Made by a program: the position numbers and the translations under genes
Notes under the pieces: generated by a model
Told to the model about the DNA's origin: nothing
Seen by the model: only the letters and a program-made list of their open reading frames with translations
Databases searched by the model: none
Source: Longimicrobiales bacterium
GTDB taxonomy: Bacteria > Gemmatimonadota > Gemmatimonadetes > Longimicrobiales > Gaopeijiaceae
NCBI GenBank assembly: GCA_965219445.1
Contig: CBDCNQ010000005.1
Span: 1,088,001-1,152,000 of the forward strand
Direction: 5' to 3'
DNA length: 64,000 nt
Part shown: positions 1-8,684 of the stretch, piece by piece
Position numbering within the stretch: the stretch's first letter is position 1
Layout of the letters: every line of letters begins with the position of its first letter

Positions 1-109
1 CCTTCTCACGCGTCGCAGAGAACTTCGGAATGGCGATGGCCGCCAAGATTCCGATGATCACGACCACGATGAGGAGCTCGATGAGGGTGAAACCCTTGTT
101 GTCCCGCAT
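1..109 (-). CDS. pilA: Type IVa major pilin, N-terminal part (runs off window edge)
   Basis: Manual translation from ATG at 109: MRDNKG/FTLIELLIVVVIIGILAAIAIPKFSATREK, a class III signal peptide with G|F cleavage and E5; AGGAG RBS upstream. The ORF track shows only another frame. Confidence 0.93.
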   Translation of the reverse strand, partial: MRDNKGFTLIELLIVVVIIGILAAIAIPKFSATREK

Positions 110-163
110 GGTGATATCTCCTGATAGTAAGACACTGGTGAACATTCGATATGCCCTCTTGAG

Positions 164-179
164 TGCAAAGGCTGGTCCA
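164..179 (-). promoter_or_regulatory. sigma54 (-24/-12) promoter for pilA
   Basis: Minus strand TGGACCAGCCTTTGCA = GG-N10-GC, about 55 nt upstream of the pilA start; a sigma54 activator (PilR) is encoded nearby. Confidence 0.7.
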
Positions 180-197
180 CAAGTTGGCATGTCTTGT

Positions 198-210
198 TAA
201 ATCATTGTTT
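198..210 (-). promoter_or_regulatory. Possible IHF site
   Basis: Minus strand AAACAATGATTTA, one mismatch to WATCAANNNNTTR, in an AT-rich tract just upstream of the -24 box. Confidence 0.4.
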
Positions 211-253
211 ATCATAGTTTTACGTAATTGTGGACAGGCATCTACTGTTCCTT

Positions 254-2158
254 TTATCGGCCGTCCAATGCCGGATTTTGCAAAGCATTGGCATTTTCAG
301 AGCCTTGTAGAACCGCCTGAATACTGTCAATTTGGCCGATTTTGTCCGGAGGCCTCACCTTGGTACGAGCGCTGTCGAGGGATTCAAGCGCCCGAGCCGT
401 GTCCCCCGAATGGGCGTATGCCTCCGCGAGCCAGAACCACTGCTGCCAACGGTGTCCTTCACCCGCTTCTATGGTTTGGCGGCGGGCCTGGACCGACTCC
501 TCCCAGCGGCCCTCCACCGCCAAGGAGTGGGCCAGGAGATGGTTCGAAAGCAGATCTTGTGACCCGTAGGAGGCGATGGCAGCCTCCGCTGCTTCGATCG
601 CGGCCCGATAATTCCGTTCGCTGTAATAGACGCCGGCGAGGAGGCGAGGCGCGATCCCTTCATCCGGGTATTCTTCCCAGGCCCGCCGGAAAAGGGCCTT
701 GGCGGCCTCCGTTTCTCTGTAGGCGAGGAGTCGGCGCCCCACGTCCACAAGGACAGGGTAGCTTCCATTCAAGAGACCGATCGTAACTCGGTAGGCTGCG
801 TTACCCGCCTTCCTGTTGCCGACCATGTGGTACGTGTCTCCCAGGAGCCACTGCGCACGTCCCGACTCCGGGTGCTCACGGATCAGGGTGTCGAAAACGG
901 TGAAGTTGTTTCGCCAAGTGGCGTTCCGGGTGACGGTTCGAAATGACATGAGCGTCAATACGAGGATGAGTGCGCCCTGGGCCACGCGGCGCCGCTCCTT
1001 GTAGAGCTCCGCGCCTATCCATGCGAGCAGCAGCACGAATCCGACCGATGGCAGATAGAGCGTGCGCTCCGCGAGGAGAACCCCCGAAAGGAAAAGCACA
1101 TTGGACACCGGTGACAGCGTGATCACGAGCCATAGGACACCGAACGAGAAGAGACGGGGCGGGGCACGGTCCACCCCGAGTGTCTGCGTTCCCCACAAAC
1201 GTAAGGTCAGTCCGAGCGTCCCCAGGAGGAGAAGAGCACCCAGGACGCCACTTCCGGTCCAGTCGAAGGCGAGAGGAATTACGGCCGGAGCATAATCGGC
1301 GCTCAAGTCGAGAGGGAAAAACAGCAGCCGGAAGTAGTGGGGCCAGGTCGACGCGACTGTCCAGATCCGGGATACGTCTTCCTGCAAGAGGGCAGCACCC
1401 AACGGGGCCAACGGGCTGGCTACGCTTCCAAGCACGGCGTATCGAGCGATCAGGATGAGTCCCGTTGCCACCGCCAGGCTTACGTAGATCGCCCACCGGC
1501 GGCGAACGTATGAAGGCGCCTCTTCGATCGCGACGTTGTCACGTGCCCCGTCCAGAAGGAAGAGCACCGCGGGGAGTGTGATGGCACTCTCCTTCGCAAG
1601 GAAGGCGAGCACGAACAGAAGCGTAACGGCTGCGCCGGGTAGAAGCGCAATCCGCTCTCCCGCCCGCAGAAAGACGAGGCAAGCGCCCAGATACAGAGCC
1701 GACGAGAAGACCTCGGCAAACCCCACAACGTTTGCCACCGCCTCGACATGGACGGGATGAACCGCGAAGAGCAGCCCCCCGGTGAACGCGAGGGCGAGGG
1801 GCACGAGTTCGGCCAGCACCAGCACGACGAGCGCGGTAACAACTCCGTGGAGCAGCACGTTCATCATATGGAACATTGCAGGATTCTCGCCCCAGACCGC
1901 CCACTGAATACCGTAGAGCGCCGTCGTCACCGGCCTCCACAATCCCAGCGCCCGGCCGAACTCATTCGGCCAGTAGGGAGAGACCATAGCCTCCGGTAGA
2001 GTGTCGAGATCCTGGATCGCCGTATTCTGGCCAACGAGAGGAACGTCGTCGAAGGCGAAGTCATTGAGGACGCTGTTCGCCGACAGAAGAACCGCGGCGG
2101 CACCCGCGAGGAGGGCGGCCGAACGGACCGACCGGAGGGGAGAATCCCATGTCCTCAT
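254..2158 (-). CDS. TMTC-like (DUF1736, GT-C fold) membrane glycosyltransferase with C-terminal TPRs, paralog B
   Basis: Motifs FAFDD, WRPVT, FAVHPVHVEAVANVVG, LAKE, LAERTLYLPS; many TM helices then TPR-like helices. Start set at ATG 2158, overlapping the upstream stop (ATGA). Confidence 0.85.
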   Translation of the reverse strand: MRTWDSPLRSVRSAALLAGAAAVLLSANSVLNDFAFDDVPLVGQNTAIQDLDTLPEAMVSPYWPNEFGRALGLWRPVTTALYGIQWAVWGENPAMFHMMNVLLHGVVTALVVLVLAELVPLALAFTGGLLFAVHPVHVEAVANVVGFAEVFSSALYLGACLVFLRAGERIALLPGAAVTLLFVLAFLAKESAITLPAVLFLLDGARDNVAIEEAPSYVRRRWAIYVSLAVATGLILIARYAVLGSVASPLAPLGAALLQEDVSRIWTVASTWPHYFRLLFFPLDLSADYAPAVIPLAFDWTGSGVLGALLLLGTLGLTLRLWGTQTLGVDRAPPRLFSFGVLWLVITLSPVSNVLFLSGVLLAERTLYLPSVGFVLLLAWIGAELYKERRRVAQGALILVLTLMSFRTVTRNATWRNNFTVFDTLIREHPESGRAQWLLGDTYHMVGNRKAGNAAYRVTIGLLNGSYPVLVDVGRRLLAYRETEAAKALFRRAWEEYPDEGIAPRLLAGVYYSERNYRAAIEAAEAAIASYGSQDLLSNHLLAHSLAVEGRWEESVQARRQTIEAGEGHRWQQWFWLAEAYAHSGDTARALESLDSARTKVRPPDKIGQIDSIQAVLQGSENANALQNPALDGR

Positions 2159-3972
2159 GGTTGGCGGCCGGAAGTCTGTGCGTCGCCCCCGGAGGCCATG
2201 CCCTCTTTGCGTGCAAGGACATCGGCACGCCGAGACGCGGCCCCGGCGTCCTCGGAGCGGCCAGCCAACTCCATGATCTCGCTCATGCGACGCCACTCCT
2301 CCGAATTCTCGTGGGCCACGCCAAAGGATGCCCACCGCGCCCGAATGGCCGCGTCGTAGTCGCCCTTCGCCACGTAGCTTTCGGACACGAGTTTCCACAG
2401 GTCTCCGTCGGATCCAACCAGAGACAGGCCCTGGAGTGCGACCGCGTGTCCTTCCCGGCCTCGGCCTTGATTTAGACGCTGTTCGGAGAGGACCTGCCAG
2501 GCGACGGGGTGCGTGGGAAACAACTGGATGGCGTGGAAGAGCAGCGGCTCCGCGTCGGCCCACCGCTCGCCCCGCCCATAGAAACGCGCGACCTCCACGA
2601 GCAGGCTGTACCCTTCCGGAGCCAGCTCCAACGCCGTCTGGTAATAGCGCTCGGCCTCATCGAATTCCCCTACGTTGTCGAGACCCCGGGCACGTGCCCT
2701 GATGGCCATGAACGACTCGGGGTGCTCTTCCCCGAGGGTCGTCAACATCGTGAACGTGCTCATCCATGACGGATTTCTGAGCACGGTCCGCACCATGAAG
2801 CCACCGCACAGGACTCCCGCGGCCACCAAGAGCATACTCAGGGATGTCCTACGCTCACGAGCCACCCAGGACACGACTCCCGCCACAACGAATGCGAGCC
2901 CAACCGACGGCAGGTATAGCGTTCGTTCCGCCAGCAACACGCCCGTCGGGATGAGCAGGTTCGTAACCGGAAGGATCGCGATGCCGAACCAGGCGATGCC
3001 GAACGCCACCAGACGCTCCCTGGGCCAGAGGAAGATGGTGGCCGTTGCGGCACTGAGAATCATGAATAGGCCCAGGACCACGTCGGGCCCCCAGGTCAAC
3101 GCTGGAAAGAGTACCGCCGGAGCGTAGTCCACGACGAGGTCTAGCGGAAACACGAGGAGCCGGAAATACTGTGGCCAGACCGCCAGAGATGTCAGGACTC
3201 TCTGGCCCGCTGAGAGACCCATGAGGGCCGGCGCGGGCTCTTCGCCCGAAAACGAGCCCAACATCAGGAATCTGGCGCCCATGAAGGCAGCCAGAAGGGC
3301 GCCGGTCAGGAGGAAGATTGGTAGATCGGTCCGAACACGGTCCGTGATGCGTCCTTTTTCGCTCCGAAACAAGGCCATGAGCACGAGCAACGCCGGGAGC
3401 GTCGCGGCCATTTCCTTCGAGCCGAGACCGACCATATATAGTGCCCCGATCCCGAGGAGACGGGCGACCCTCCGTGGGCATGAAAGCCCCCTTCCCTTCC
3501 AGAAGATCAGACACGCCCCGAGCACAAAGAGCGCAGAGTACAACTCGGCCCGCCCCACTACGTTGGCGACCGCCTCACTATGGACGGGATGGGCCGCGAA
3601 CAGCGCCGCGCCAACGAGAGCTGGAAGCGTTGCCGACACCTCCAAGATCAACAGGAACACCAGCAGAGATACGGCCGTGTGAACAGCTAAGTTCACGAGG
3701 TGAAAACCAGCGGGATGGCCGTTCCACAACCTCCACTCCAGTGCGAAGCTCGAGAGAGTGACGGGCCGATAGAGGCCCGCTCCGTTCACCACCTGCGGCC
3801 AATAGGGAGACGTCAACGCATCAAAAACCCGTCCCTCGGTCACCACGGGGTTCCCCTCGAGGATCGTGTTGTCGTCGTAGGCGAAACCGTTGAGCACGGA
3901 GTTGGCGAAGGTTCCTACCGCCACGAGTACCACAAGGAGCGCGGCGCGCCACGGCGGGATCGCTCTGGTCAC
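2155..3972 (-). CDS. TMTC-like (DUF1736, GT-C fold) membrane glycosyltransferase with C-terminal TPRs, paralog A
   Basis: Motifs FAYDD, YRPVT, FAAHPVHSEAVANVVGRAE, GSKE, LAERTLYLPS; GTG start at 3972 with GGAG upstream. Confidence 0.85.
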   Translation of the reverse strand: MTRAIPPWRAALLVVLVAVGTFANSVLNGFAYDDNTILEGNPVVTEGRVFDALTSPYWPQVVNGAGLYRPVTLSSFALEWRLWNGHPAGFHLVNLAVHTAVSLLVFLLILEVSATLPALVGAALFAAHPVHSEAVANVVGRAELYSALFVLGACLIFWKGRGLSCPRRVARLLGIGALYMVGLGSKEMAATLPALLVLMALFRSEKGRITDRVRTDLPIFLLTGALLAAFMGARFLMLGSFSGEEPAPALMGLSAGQRVLTSLAVWPQYFRLLVFPLDLVVDYAPAVLFPALTWGPDVVLGLFMILSAATATIFLWPRERLVAFGIAWFGIAILPVTNLLIPTGVLLAERTLYLPSVGLAFVVAGVVSWVARERRTSLSMLLVAAGVLCGGFMVRTVLRNPSWMSTFTMLTTLGEEHPESFMAIRARARGLDNVGEFDEAERYYQTALELAPEGYSLLVEVARFYGRGERWADAEPLLFHAIQLFPTHPVAWQVLSEQRLNQGRGREGHAVALQGLSLVGSDGDLWKLVSESYVAKGDYDAAIRARWASFGVAHENSEEWRRMSEIMELAGRSEDAGAASRRADVLARKEGMASGGDAQTSGRQP

Positions 3973-3989
3973 CTGGATCGGACTCCCGA

Positions 3990-4883
3990 TCAGTCCGAAC
4001 CGGCCACAGGAGGCACGCTGGTCTCCGACCCTCCCCCACCATCCGGAGCGGCGGGGAGCGCCGTGCCCGGTCCATCCGCCGGCGCCCGCCCCTCCCACGG
4101 CTGTACCTTGGGCACTTGCCAGGGATCGAGCTTTGGGCGGAAGAGATTGGAGCGAAGGATGTAATAGAGGGCGGACACACCGTCCTTCCAGTTGATTTTC
4201 TTCCCCTCCGCGTACGAGCGTCCGTCATAACTGATCGGAAGCTCGTAGATGCGAGCCCCCGCCTGAGCAAGGCGGGCAGTCACCTCCGGCTCGAAACCGA
4301 AACGGTTGGCCGACAGAGGTAGACACTTCAGAAGATCCGCCTGAACGACCTTATAGCAGGTCTCCATGTCGGTGAGGTTGAGGTCCGTCAACATGTTACT
4401 CAGCAGCGTCAAGAAGCGATTTCCCACCATGTGCCAAAAGAACAGGACGCGGTGAGGGCCGCCGAGAAAGCGTGACCCGTAAACGGCATCTGCCTTTCCG
4501 GCCAAGATCGGCTGAATGAGGGTTGGCAGTTCGTGCGGGTCATACTCAAGGTCAGCATCCTGGATCGCGATGATATCGCCGGTAGCCCGCTCGAACCCCG
4601 CCCGGAGAGCTGCACCCTTGCCCTTGTTCACCTCCTGGAACACCAGGACATCGATCACTCCCTCGTCCCGTAGGCTCACGAGCAGATCGCGCGTGCCGTC
4701 GGTGGATCCATCATCTACCACGATCACTTCGACGTCGAGGCGGACCTCACGAACCCGCCGGAGGAGGGCCTCGGCGCTCCGGATCTCGTTGTAGGCAGGA
4801 ATAACCACCGAGAGCCTCACCTTATCCCAGGCGAGATCACCGTGCCTTCTCTTATCCATTCCCCGGAAACTCGGCCTGGTCAT
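3990..4883 (-). CDS. GT2 glycosyltransferase, DPM1/polyprenol-phosphate sugar synthase-like
   Basis: SVVIPAYNE, VVDDGSTDGT, NKGKGAAL, IQDADLEYDP, GSRF, DMETCYK, FGFEPEVT motifs. Confidence 0.9.
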   Translation of the reverse strand: MTRPSFRGMDKRRHGDLAWDKVRLSVVIPAYNEIRSAEALLRRVREVRLDVEVIVVDDGSTDGTRDLLVSLRDEGVIDVLVFQEVNKGKGAALRAGFERATGDIIAIQDADLEYDPHELPTLIQPILAGKADAVYGSRFLGGPHRVLFFWHMVGNRFLTLLSNMLTDLNLTDMETCYKVVQADLLKCLPLSANRFGFEPEVTARLAQAGARIYELPISYDGRSYAEGKKINWKDGVSALYYILRSNLFRPKLDPWQVPKVQPWEGRAPADGPGTALPAAPDGGGGSETSVPPVAGSD

Positions 4884-4887
4884 GTGG

Positions 4888-6249
4888 TCAGACCTCGATG
4901 CCGTACCGATTGAGCTTCCTGTACAGGGTGGAGGGATCGATGCCGAGAACCTCCGCCGCCTTCGACTTGTTGCCCCCCTCAGCCGCAAGAACCCACTGGA
5001 TATATGCCCTTTCGATCACCTCCATCGAAGGATTCGGGGGGAGGTGATCCGTGACGAGCGGTTTCGCATCCGTCGCTCGTACCCCCTCGGGCAGGTGGTC
5101 CACTGAGATCTCCGAATCGGGCGTCACGACGGCGGCGCGTTCCAAGGCGTTTTCGAGCTCCCGAACGTTTCCGGGCCAGTCATAAGCACACAACGCCTCC
5201 AACGTATCCTCCCCGAGTTTCTTTTCTCCTTCTCGCTCCGCCAACGACCCGAGGAAACGGTGGGCCAGCACGGGTATGTCGTCCTTCCTCTCGCGGAGCG
5301 GGGGGAGATGCAGCGCGATCACGTTGAGCCGATAGTAGACGTCACTCCGGAACGCTCCTCGACGAATTTCCTCATTCAAATCACTGTTCGTGGCGGCCAT
5401 GATCCGAACGTCGATTTGCCGTACCTCCGTCGAACCCACGGGTATGACCTCGCGCTCCTGAAGAGCCCGGAGGAGCCTAACCTGGGTCGCGGGGGACATT
5501 TCTCCGATTTCGTCCAGAAAGAGGGTCCCCCCGCCGGCCGCCTCGAAGAGTCCCACTTTGTCCTTGACGGCACCTGTAAACGCTCCCTTCACATGCCCGA
5601 AGAGCTCGCTCTCGAGAAGCCCTTCTGGAAGCGCCCCACAGTTCACGGACAAGAAGTCCGCCTCGGCCCGCCCACTGAGCCCGTGGATATAGCGGGCCAG
5701 TACCTCTTTCCCTGAGCCGCTCTCCCCGGTGATCAGTACGGTGGACTCCGTCGGGGCCACCGTCTCGGCCAACTTGAGCACATCGAGGAAGGCCCGGTTC
5801 TTACCCGTCGGCCGGTCGGACGGCCGCATCGACTGTCGGCGAATCTCCTTCTTGAGGGCCTTGTTCTCCACGCGCAGCTGCCTCGTCTCCGCAGCCCTAC
5901 GGCAGATGGCCAGGAGTTCGTCGTTGGCGAATGGCTTCTGGAGGTAGTAGTAGGCTCCCTCGTTGACCGCCCGTACCGCCGTCTGTAGCGATGCTTGCGC
6001 AGTCATCAAGATCACGGCCGTCTCGGGATCGACCTCATGCGCCTTCGCCATGACCTCGAGGCCTGTCATCCCCGGCATCCGAATGTCTGTCAAGACGATG
6101 TCCGGAGAGGCGCTGGGAAGCATCTCGACCGCCTCGCGCCCACTGAGCGCCGACACCACCTCGTAGCCGTTGCCCCGAAGCAGGATGCGAAGCGTGTCGA
6201 GGATGCCCGTCTCGTCATCCACCAGGAGAATCTTCCTCTCCTCACTCAT
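4888..6249 (-). CDS. pilR: sigma54-dependent response regulator (REC, AAA+, Fis HTH), PilR-like
   Basis: Receiver domain, GESGSGKE, GAFTGA, FLDEIG, C-terminal HTH; the symbol rests on context between the kinase and the pilin. Confidence 0.85.
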   Translation of the reverse strand: MSEERKILLVDDETGILDTLRILLRGNGYEVVSALSGREAVEMLPSASPDIVLTDIRMPGMTGLEVMAKAHEVDPETAVILMTAQASLQTAVRAVNEGAYYYLQKPFANDELLAICRRAAETRQLRVENKALKKEIRRQSMRPSDRPTGKNRAFLDVLKLAETVAPTESTVLITGESGSGKEVLARYIHGLSGRAEADFLSVNCGALPEGLLESELFGHVKGAFTGAVKDKVGLFEAAGGGTLFLDEIGEMSPATQVRLLRALQEREVIPVGSTEVRQIDVRIMAATNSDLNEEIRRGAFRSDVYYRLNVIALHLPPLRERKDDIPVLAHRFLGSLAEREGEKKLGEDTLEALCAYDWPGNVRELENALERAAVVTPDSEISVDHLPEGVRATDAKPLVTDHLPPNPSMEVIERAYIQWVLAAEGGNKSKAAEVLGIDPSTLYRKLNRYGIEV

Positions 6250-7925
6250 ACGGCCGCCTCCTGCTTTGTCACGGAAGCCACTTCCGTGCCCGGTAGCAGG
6301 ACGACGAATCGAGTCCCTCCTGTCGGCACCTCCTCAGCGTACACGGCCCCACCGTGTGCCTGGACGGCGCGATGCACCATCGCCAGGCCGAGACCGCTCC
6401 CACCCTTACGCGTCGTATAGAAGGGCGCGAAGATACGCCCGACGTCCTCAGGCGGAATCCCCGGCCCGGAATCGCGAACGCTCAAACACACGGGATGGGA
6501 CACGGTGGTTCCAGGAAGGGGGCCCTGTCCGGAGCGATCCTCGAGGGAGATCTGGACCGTTCCCCGAGATCCGCTGAACTGAACCGCATTGAGGATCAAG
6601 TTGAAGACCATGCGGTGAAGGAGATCGGCGTCCCCCGGTAGGATCAGACGGCCTTCGAGGCCCTCCTCATCAATGCGAATCCCCGCTTCACAGTCCGGAT
6701 GCTGCTTTACCAATGCGACGGCCTGCCGGACCACCCGCGTAAAGTCCACCCTGGCCTTTGCCCCGAGGCGGATCACAGAGAAATCGAGAAATTCATTAAG
6801 CAACCGGCTCAGACGATCCGACTCCGACAGAACGAGCCGCTGAAGGAGTGCACGATCCTCTATGGGAAGGCTGGGGCTGTCGAACTGCTCCACTGCGCTC
6901 CTGATGGAAGCCAACGGGTTCTTGATTTCGTGGGCCAGCGAAGCACTCAGTTCAGCCACGGCCTCGAGCCGTTCGTTTCTGCGATTCAGCGCCTGAATCC
7001 GCTCCAGATCCGTGATGTCTTGGAAGATCGCCGTAACAGATGGGCCCTCTCCCTCGCGACTCTCGAGCACGGTCGTGCTGATGCCCAGCACCAAGTCACC
7101 CGTCGGCCTCTTGACGGACGCCGTCTGGCGGCTGACCGGGCGGAGTCCGTTCATGCTCCTCCGGAGCGCCTCGGCAAGCCCCGGAGCCATCTCCGCAACA
7201 ACATCCAAAATAGGGGCGCCGTGCCACTGTTCGAGGGTCAGATCCAAGAATCGTTCGCCGGCTCTGTTGAGGTACCCCAGTCTCCCACCATCGACGACCG
7301 TGAGCACGCCCGTCGAGATGTTCGTGAGGATGTCCCCCGTGTCGAGCCGTAGTCGAACGAGCTCAGACTGGACTTCTCCGAGCGCGAGCCAAGCCCTCTG
7401 GACGCGGTCTCCCAGCCAACCTGTGATGAGAGCGACGACAGCGAAGAGCCCGATCTGGAGGCCAGCGGTGTTCAGGTCCAGGCTGTCGGCACGTCCCCAT
7501 ACGAGATCCGCAAAGTAGAGGATAGACGAGAGTGCCCCGATGAGGACGCCGCCCGGTAAGGGCAGCAGAAGAGCCCCCTCGGTGATCACCAGAATATAGA
7601 GGGGAGCGAAGGCGACATCGCCGCCGCCCGATGTGATGTGGATGACCGCCGTGACAAGCAACGCGTCGAAAACGACCTGGCCGTACATGAAGTTTCGGCC
7701 GGCTGGGTTGCGGCGCAGGTCGGTGTACCATATGGAAGCGAGCGTGACAGCCGTCGTGATTATGAACAGGAGGGTCGCGATGCGCGTGGCTTCCGGGGGA
7801 GCGGAGAACCAGGCTACCATCATGCCGACGAGAATCCCGGTCGCCAGGGTCACCCGGCCGACGTAGACCCAGCGGAGAAGTCGGGTTCTGCCGAACTCGT
7901 ACCTCTTTGACGTCTCCGGCCTCAC
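6246..7925 (-). CDS. pilS: Membrane sensor histidine kinase, PilS-like
   Basis: Several N-terminal TM helices, PAS-like region, H-box LAHEIKNPL, N/G boxes (NLILNA, DSGPG, GSGLGL); ATGA overlap with pilR. Confidence 0.85.
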   Translation of the reverse strand: MRPETSKRYEFGRTRLLRWVYVGRVTLATGILVGMMVAWFSAPPEATRIATLLFIITTAVTLASIWYTDLRRNPAGRNFMYGQVVFDALLVTAVIHITSGGGDVAFAPLYILVITEGALLLPLPGGVLIGALSSILYFADLVWGRADSLDLNTAGLQIGLFAVVALITGWLGDRVQRAWLALGEVQSELVRLRLDTGDILTNISTGVLTVVDGGRLGYLNRAGERFLDLTLEQWHGAPILDVVAEMAPGLAEALRRSMNGLRPVSRQTASVKRPTGDLVLGISTTVLESREGEGPSVTAIFQDITDLERIQALNRRNERLEAVAELSASLAHEIKNPLASIRSAVEQFDSPSLPIEDRALLQRLVLSESDRLSRLLNEFLDFSVIRLGAKARVDFTRVVRQAVALVKQHPDCEAGIRIDEEGLEGRLILPGDADLLHRMVFNLILNAVQFSGSRGTVQISLEDRSGQGPLPGTTVSHPVCLSVRDSGPGIPPEDVGRIFAPFYTTRKGGSGLGLAMVHRAVQAHGGAVYAEEVPTGGTRFVVLLPGTEVASVTKQEAAV

Positions 7926-8045
7926 AACCCAGCTCCAATCAGGATGAGTCAGTGTACAACTTGGGATGCTATCTCACGCTATTACTCGGCATGGCACAGT
8001 GCAACACTTCTATGTGGCGTTTTGCAAAAGGGCGGCGATCCTGCC

Positions 8046-8684
8046 TCAGAGCTCCGGCCGCCGGATGACCCTGATCTCTCCGAGGAGCGCATAAGCGAAC
8101 CCCCAAAGCCGCCCTACCGGCCGCAGCCCTTCAGTGTCCACGAACGCCGATCCCTCAACTATGGGAAGCTCGGGATCCAGACGCACACCCGTCACTTCGC
8201 CGAGCACCAACCCCCCGGCTTCGCCCAGTTCCACATGCCTGTAGAGTTTACATTCAAGAACCGCCGGGCAGTCCGCCACATACGGCGCGTCTACGGTCTC
8301 GGCCTCCGCCACAGACAGTCCAGCGAAAGCGAATTCATCATCCTCCGGGGGCAAGCTCGCTCCCGTCCGGTTCATCGCCTCAAGCTGGGCTTCAGTGACG
8401 ACATTCACGCAGAAGGCGCCTTGGTCCAGGATGTTGCGGAGTGAATCCTTAGCCACTCCTCCCCTCGTGCCGATGGACAAGCTCACAAGCATGGGCGATG
8501 ACGCCACTGCAGAGAAGAAGCTGAAGGGTGCCACGTTGAGAACGCCGCCCGTATCCCGGGTCGAGACCCAGCCGATCGGGCGGGGTACGACGAGTGACGT
8601 GAGAAGCTGGTACCGTTCACGGGCGTCGACCGTGTCGGTACGGATTACTCTATGCCGAAGGGGCCCTTCCGGCTCGCCGGCCAC
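8046..8684 (-). CDS. Flavin reductase-like (DIM6/NTAB family) protein
   Basis: VVPRPIGWVST, NVAPFSFF, KDSLRNI, GRL motifs. Confidence 0.88.
   Translation of the reverse strand: MAGEPEGPLRHRVIRTDTVDARERYQLLTSLVVPRPIGWVSTRDTGGVLNVAPFSFFSAVASSPMLVSLSIGTRGGVAKDSLRNILDQGAFCVNVVTEAQLEAMNRTGASLPPEDDEFAFAGLSVAEAETVDAPYVADCPAVLECKLYRHVELGEAGGLVLGEVTGVRLDPELPIVEGSAFVDTEGLRPVGRLWGFAYALLGEIRVIRRPEL

Follow-up and report, generated by a model that had tools for sequence, protein, structure and literature searches.

TfpW transfers D-arabinofuranose (D-Araf) to Ser/Thr of the pilin in Pseudomonas aeruginosa group IV / P. paraeruginosa (Pa5196, PA7). This pilin D-arabinofuranosyltransferase is a 646-aa glycosyltransferase of the GT-C type, encoded next to pilA; 11 helices are predicted in it, its DDX motif is essential, and it also has a YX6PFX7P motif and a tail of tetratricopeptide repeats (TPR) (10.1101/2020.04.19.049825). 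In Pseudomonas, pilin D-Araf glycosylation stops pilus-specific phages, according to the part of 10.1101/150227 cited here. For the animal proteins TMTC1-4, full-length prokaryotic homologues have already been mentioned as uncharacterised in the cited section of PMC7801869. The window analysed here, a 64,000-nt stretch of contig CBDCNQ010000005.1 from a Longimicrobiales bacterium (phylum Gemmatimonadota), begins within a type IV pilin gene (pilA), beside which lie the genes of a GT2 glycosyltransferase and of two GT-C/TPR proteins, TMTC_A and TMTC_B, together called the cassette. The combined analysis makes it likely that this cassette O-glycosylates the pilin, the GT2 making the donor and the GT-C/TPR pair transferring the sugar. 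This interpretation draws on the gene order, on a predicted model with a GT-C fold, on motifs of catalytic type, on the homology with an orthologue of TfpW and on linkage to pilA in two phyla.

Gene order and the GT-C/TPR pair

From pilS to the pilin every gene is on the minus strand and co-directional. The series begins with a pilS-like sensor kinase (559 aa, 6246..7925; Pfam 6TM_PilS at E 2e-9, over the cut-off, with PAS, HisKA and HATPase_c) and a pilR-like sigma54 response regulator (453 aa, 4888..6249; Response_reg, Sigma54_activat and HTH_8). These are followed by the DPM1-like GT2, a predicted polyprenol-phosphate-sugar synthase (297 aa, 3990..4883; PF00535 at E 7e-33, DAD motif at 109), by TMTC_A (605 aa, 2155..3972), assigned from its AlphaFold model, fold matches and motifs to a GT-C membrane glycosyltransferase domain (~residues 1-405) with a TPR tail, and by its paralogue TMTC_B (634 aa, 254..2158). 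The tight packing described in an earlier note on this DNA was confirmed: ATGA overlaps join pilS to pilR and TMTC_A to TMTC_B, and gaps of 4 nt and 17 nt separate pilR from GT2 and GT2 from TMTC_A, respectively. That note also had the pilin following directly, which is corrected here, as 144 nt separate TMTC_B from the pilin start at 109 and this gap contains a sigma54-type -24/-12 site (179-165, minus strand). Ahead of the first pilA, the same pattern was found in 57 of 97 related loci compared to 0.6% of random 200-nt windows. Since the gap carries a sigma54-type site that recurs in related loci, pilA is probably transcribed separately under the control of PilR. A sigma70 scan of 1-8200 gave no promoter, terminators were at chance level, and the GC content was flat across the cassette.

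TMTC_A and TMTC_B are 35% identical over 540 aa, and a hydropathy scan found 10 segments in each. The AlphaFold model of TMTC_A was built on a 34-row alignment (pLDDT 85.7). In a wide structural search, residues ~1-420 of this model were matched to AglB (3waj; Z 19.7, root mean square deviation (rmsd) 4.5, 330 aligned) and ArnT (5f15; Z 18.2), followed by OST-B (Z 18.1), Pmt4 (18.0), Pmt1 (17.9) and PglB (17.1); the GT-C matches overall had an rmsd of 4.4-5.1 across 330-350 residues, and the tail was matched to TPR proteins. The proposal of a GT-C protein with a TPR tail is therefore borne out by the structure check. Only TPR proteins were among the matches listed when solved structures were searched by sequence with TMTC_A, TMTC_B and their alignment, and likewise with Foldseek. 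No TMTC structure was among the matches, which does not speak against such a likeness.

The motif residues of TMTC_A are D33-D34, R69-P70, R141-x-E143, K186-E187, D282 and E349-R350, and TMTC_B has the same motifs except for a Phe at the position of Arg141. Among the Gemmatimonadota copies, DD and RP were found in 131/131, the Lys and Glu of KE in 131 and 130, and ER in 130/131. The Arg141 position is variable in the family, with Arg present in 45 of the 131 copies. A Pfam scan gave no Wzy_C match in the cassette proteins. For PF08409 (TMTC_DUF1736), the check suggested in the earlier note, TMTC_B stayed below the cut-off (E 0.007, 16.8 bits versus 27) and TMTC_A did not match, while 13 of 34 homologues gave weak matches at E up to 0.1 (best 2.3e-4). 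When used as a genome query, the DUF1736 model matched nothing, controls included, and was hence uninformative.

The relationship to TfpW was established through a locus of the Pseudomonas genus sample (L313, genome G317) with the order pilB-pilA-641-aa GT-C-245-aa open reading frame (ORF)-tRNA-Thr. The 641-aa protein has the DD and the exact YX6PFX7P motif, and its genome carries a GtrA-DprE1-DprE2 cluster; TfpX is given as 244 aa in the cited portion of PMC11841053. The L313 protein was taken as a TfpW orthologue because of these motifs, the TfpX-sized next ORF and the GtrA-DprE1-DprE2 cluster, an assignment made by context for a protein that is not the characterised TfpW allele. A profile of 128 Gemmatimonadota copies matched it at E 8e-27 across 395 columns, and pairwise comparison gave E 3e-9 to TMTC_A and 5e-7 to TMTC_B at 19-21% identity, with DD, RP, HP, GRxD, KE, the loop-4 prolines and ER in register. 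A profile-profile comparison with seven Pseudomonadales proteins reached a probability of 99.9 across 549 columns. On these comparisons TMTC_A and TMTC_B are homologous to TfpW and are not TfpW orthologues. The earlier note knew of no characterised bacterial homologue with this role; TfpW, a pilin glycosyltransferase, is such a homologue.

Linkage to pilA in two phyla

Of 251 genomes in the phylum, 129 were matched by the membrane domain of TMTC_A. Eighty loci from 66 genomes were examined for pilin genes; they were drawn from the best-scoring matches, with long contigs favoured, and 121 lower-scoring matches lie outside this set. A pilA-like gene was found within 5 kb in 63/80 loci, representing 63/66 genomes and 38/39 genera (counted by hand), and within 1 kb in 57/80, so that the linkage suspected from this one locus holds across relatives; two of the linked loci rest on weak pilin matches at a contig end or a frameshift. 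The GT2 orthologue and pilR were each present in 47/63 linked loci, as counted in the fetched stretch only. One transferase copy was found in 25 linked loci, two in 29 and three in 9, and 12 loci had one copy inverted relative to pilA with adjacency kept. Further multi-pass GT-C-type genes, belonging to clusters with some PMT_2-matching members (6/11 scanned), were present in 33/63; other neighbours included a methyltransferase in 11 and a second, GtrB-like GT2 in 9. Forty genomes without a membrane-domain match were also inspected: the pilA slot was occupied by other GT-C genes in 6 of them, and by a Wzy_C gene (L146) and an acyltransferase gene in one each. As kin are not independent, these linkage counts are descriptive; what carries weight is that copies are inverted or swapped and that the linkage recurs in a second phylum.

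The second phylum was sampled in Gammaproteobacteria at loci picked by a published pilB primer (primer source, cited in part: PMC2841157), a choice blind to the transferase, and 80 of 120 listed stretches were used. A pilin was present in 71 of these and a transferase homologue in 8, of which 7 were directly after pilA and 4 had a GT2 next. In a sample of the genus Pseudomonas, 5/30 pilA loci had a homologue, one being a genome already in the primer set. The cassette is conserved, and the glycosylation is probably directed at the pilin.

Several loci deserve separate mention. In Pseudomonadales, the gene after pilA encodes a GT-C/TPR protein in L193, L158, L160, L203, L280-L282 and L314, with a GT2 or sugar-modifying genes behind it and no TfpX; these differ from TfpW proper and are apparently unstudied. 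The 646-aa homologue after pilA in L280 has the length of TfpW and was rejected as TfpW, since a GT2 follows it and the TfpW motif is missing. In one of the 40 genomes without a membrane-domain match, a truncated transferase remnant lies between GT2 and pilA (L115:6089-6427), and close kin of that genus have an intact copy or none. In L079, L086 and L148 the pilR-pilA slot is occupied by a membrane protein of 1020 aa that contains a spermidine-synthase domain. Large pilin arrays were seen in G093, G104 and G039, with 13 and 8 scattered pilA-like matches and with 6 tandem copies beside GT2 and a methyltransferase. L105 has an array of three TMTC-like genes and another multi-pass gene, and its fetched 20 kb contained no pilin.

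In the window the pilin gene is represented by its 5' end (1..109, minus strand; PF07963 over the cut-off) and continues past the window edge. The full gene in the own genome (L001) has 131 codons, two Cys and 25% Ser+Thr beyond mature residue 30. Pilins beside a transferase had a median Ser+Thr of 0.242 (n=57) compared to 0.201 (n=30), a modest difference (nominal p 0.003) among kin that are not independent. Beyond pilA come a further pilin, which is broken, another two-component pair, and then minor pilins and pilM. The second tandem pilin (L001:17212-17587, minus strand), just past the window start, has a stop directly after the N-terminal helix and a 13-nt gap relative to the gene of a relative; it is intact in L036, L037 and L041, and is either a pseudogene or an assembly error in L001. 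The second sensor kinase and sigma54 regulator pair (L001:14426-17088, minus strand) comes after the pilins and is kept in many relatives. Another copy of pilA with its flanks is present on a different contig (G000:C1:220456-221196, L002) at 94.7% identity over 752 nt, amid insertion sequences and an integrase.

Donor sugar, proposed route and alternatives

The best solved relative of the GT2 was dolichol-phosphate-mannose synthase (5mlz, E 1.2e-17), followed by ArnC and GtrB, in agreement with its earlier description as DPM1-like. The protein has no transmembrane helix and fell below every NCBIfam cut-off, including those of AglJ, ArnC, PpgS and PgfS, the best being AglJ with 101 bits versus 325. 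Its orthologue was present in 123/129 genomes with the transferase compared to 67/122 without a TMTC-like match. No flippase gene lies in the cassette and no GtrA match was found in 5/5 genomes; together with the 67 TMTC-negative genomes, this renders the description of the module as self-contained doubtful. The data do not support favouring mannose over other sugars. In the own genome (92% complete), no orthologue of DprE1, DprE2 or GtrA, no ALO match and no GtrA match was found, only weak oxidase/SDR matches; an FAD-oxidase gene next to an SDR gene on contig C5 was weighed as a DprE1/DprE2 pair but scored too weakly to be accepted. Since the DprE1/DprE2/GtrA orthologues were not found and a GT2 stands in their place, the sugar is probably not D-Araf. 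In another lineage, genes for a UDP-glucose dehydrogenase and a NAD-dependent epimerase/decarboxylase are immediately ahead of GT2-pilA (L123:10380-12664), where they possibly hint at a uronic acid or pentose donor.

In the proposed route, the GT2 would join an NDP-sugar to polyprenol phosphate at the cytoplasmic face, as its family suggests, and a flippase encoded elsewhere would move the lipid-linked sugar across the membrane. In the periplasm, TMTC_A and TMTC_B, with a DD/KE/ER centre, would transfer the sugar to Ser/Thr of the membrane-anchored pilin as TfpW does, the TPR tail presumably holding the acceptor, as proposed by comparison with TfpW and TMTC. The two enzymes may serve different sites or different pilins, or one may add the first sugar and the other extend it. 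By analogy with Pseudomonas, the likely benefit would be a pilus masked from phages, and a phage-blocking pilin sugar would explain a slot with content turnover.

A number of observations weigh against the proposed route. Pilin linkage was absent from 17/80 loci, some of them cut by contig ends, and this group includes a third GT-C/TPR paralogue of the own genome on another contig with no pilin nearby (G000:C2:159641-161407); the family therefore has other acceptors. The choice of top-scoring matches on long contigs raises the linked share, and the linkage within Gemmatimonadota may be largely inherited synteny. By sequence, pilA seems to have its own promoter, separate from the cassette, and the identity to TfpW is low at 19-21%. 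The remaining genomes of the 40 without a membrane-domain match had GT2 alone (12) or none of these genes (20), GT2 standing beside pilA with no GT-C neighbour in 12/40 TMTC-negative loci. A PMT_2 match was wholly missing in 2/5 genomes with GT2 and no neighbouring GT-C, and the GT2 in such genomes therefore has another use or is a leftover. In a tree of 139 sequences (FastTree, rooted on the Pseudomonadales copies, no animal TMTC included), the third paralogue grouped with other unlinked copies on a separate branch beside TMTC_A. Finally, the family comprises 60,629 clusters at E 0.001 and 30,625 at E 1e-10 from so many phyla that homology alone cannot fix the acceptor. The named homologues were from Gemmatimonadota; searches gave no match in phage records, one weak archaeal match in plasmids and none confirmed in viral contigs. 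The TfpW orthologue fell outside the Gemmatimonadota copies in the tree, and because its node was without support (0.06) and no animal TMTC was included, no order of events is claimed. The third paralogue was the sole phmmer match of the TfpW orthologue in the own genome (E 4e-11).

These observations could mean that the GT-C/TPR proteins are general envelope glycosyltransferases, acting on many periplasmic proteins or, as for ArnT, on a lipid, and lie beside pilA by inherited gene order, in a slot where GT-C genes gather. The unlinked paralogues fit this, as does the own third copy, which is tail to tail with an epimerase gene that we take to be HldD-like and is placed likewise in L038 and L040; ArnT ranks with the best fold matches, the GT2 persists without transferases and the family runs to tens of thousands of clusters. 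Nevertheless, adjacency to pilA outlasts inversion in 12 loci, Pseudomonadales show it again, there on the opposite side of pilA, the sole characterised homologue acts on a pilin and the TPR tail fits a protein acceptor, so that we regard general envelope enzymes as rather unlikely. An acceptor within the pilus other than pilA, such as the second pilin, minor pilins or a tip adhesin whose gene lies downstream, is suggested by the presence in most loci of at least two pilins and a minor-pilin block right after the cassette, and by three loci of one genus (L080, L091, L099) with minor pilins between the transferase and the pilA-like gene. Against such an acceptor, the transferase is within 1 kb of the pilA-like gene in most loci (57/80), linked loci L064, L066, L067 and L072 have a single pilin, and the Ser/Thr enrichment was found in the best pilA match; this was judged unlikely. 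Less credible still is that one or both GT-C proteins are non-catalytic helpers of pilus assembly that act through the TPR tail in the manner of TfpY-type accessory proteins. Non-enzymatic pilin accessory genes are known, as described in the cited part of PMC11841053, and in TMTC_B the Arg of the RxD/E motif is missing, but the Arg position varies family-wide, DD, RP, KE and ER are near-invariant in 131 copies and co-occurrence with the GT2 is near-obligate (123/129). Pilin glycosylation by the cassette is accordingly the interpretation we prefer.

Comparison with known systems

The GT2 shares PF00535 and a DXD with synthases of the DPM1/GtrB/ArnC type, and all of its best solved relatives belong to this group; it differs from them in having no membrane helices, no linked GtrA flippase and scores below the named-family cut-offs. 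GtrABC-like three-component systems include a polyprenol-phosphate-sugar synthase of this type. The pilin oligosaccharyltransferases TfpO/PglL likewise serve pilin O-glycosylation from a gene beside pilA, and the slot of L146 holds a Wzy_C gene, but unlike the cassette enzymes they belong to the Wzy_C family and use lipid-pyrophosphate oligosaccharide donors.

Animal TMTC1-4 (CAZy GT105, Pfam DUF1736) resemble the cassette enzymes in having a GT-C domain followed by TPRs. Seven motifs are given for them in Table 4 of PMC7801869 (cited in part), and TMTC_A and TMTC_B were compared with these by motif letters. The likeness to TMTC claimed in the earlier note stood for M1 (DD), M4 (KExxxT), M7 (ERxxY) and the RP of M2, and did not stand for the remainder: M2 is reduced from SHKSYRP to YRP/WRP, M3 from RxD to RxE (TMTC_A) or FxE (TMTC_B), M5 from DW to DY, and M6 from PxxP to one Pro. 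The missing SHKS residues are those modelled as mannose contacts in TMTCs. A role of the cassette enzymes as TMTC mannosyltransferases, and the eukaryote-like chemistry proposed in the earlier note, would be putative at most. A wider proposal, which we consider doubtful, is that TfpW, animal TMTC1-4 and the large bacterial family form one family of protein O-glycosyltransferases, whose usual bacterial task would be to coat pilins from GT2-made lipid-phosphate sugar. Pilin beta-strands would then receive mannose or another hexose from the twin enzymes, in the way that TMTCs modify cadherins, cadherin O-mannosylation would descend from pilin glycosylation, and the cassettes would be a swappable anti-phage coat across many phyla.

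A literature search that chiefly covered papers outside subscription found none joining TfpW with TMTC, and among the papers listed for pilin glycosylation (GT-C or TPR), for GT105 and for Gemmatimonadota there was nothing on this cassette; a 2025 review made no mention of TfpW, TMTC or GT-C. If the preferred interpretation is true, pilin glycosylation of the TfpW/TMTC type would be common in a major soil and marine phylum (129/251 genomes) rather than a rarity of one Pseudomonas lineage, and a very large bacterial GT-C family would have its first candidate acceptor and donor route. It would also tie TfpW to the human TMTCs, and TMTC-type chemistry could be studied on small enzyme-acceptor pairs from bacteria.

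TfpW already provides a known example of the design. TfpW and the cassette have in common a gene beside pilA, a GT-C protein with DD in the first periplasmic loop, a C-terminal TPR, an ArnT-like fold, a loop-4 proline motif of the same spacing and detectable homology over the membrane domain. In TMTC_A and TMTC_B this motif reads YX6PLX7P, the exact YX6PFX7P of TfpW being found solely in L313 and L314 among the 139 sequences, and the 10 hydropathy segments of each compare with the 11 helices predicted for TfpW. The cassette differs from TfpW in its position upstream of pilA, in its twin enzymes, in having no TfpX and in a DPM1-like GT2 donor synthase that replaces the D-Araf pathway.

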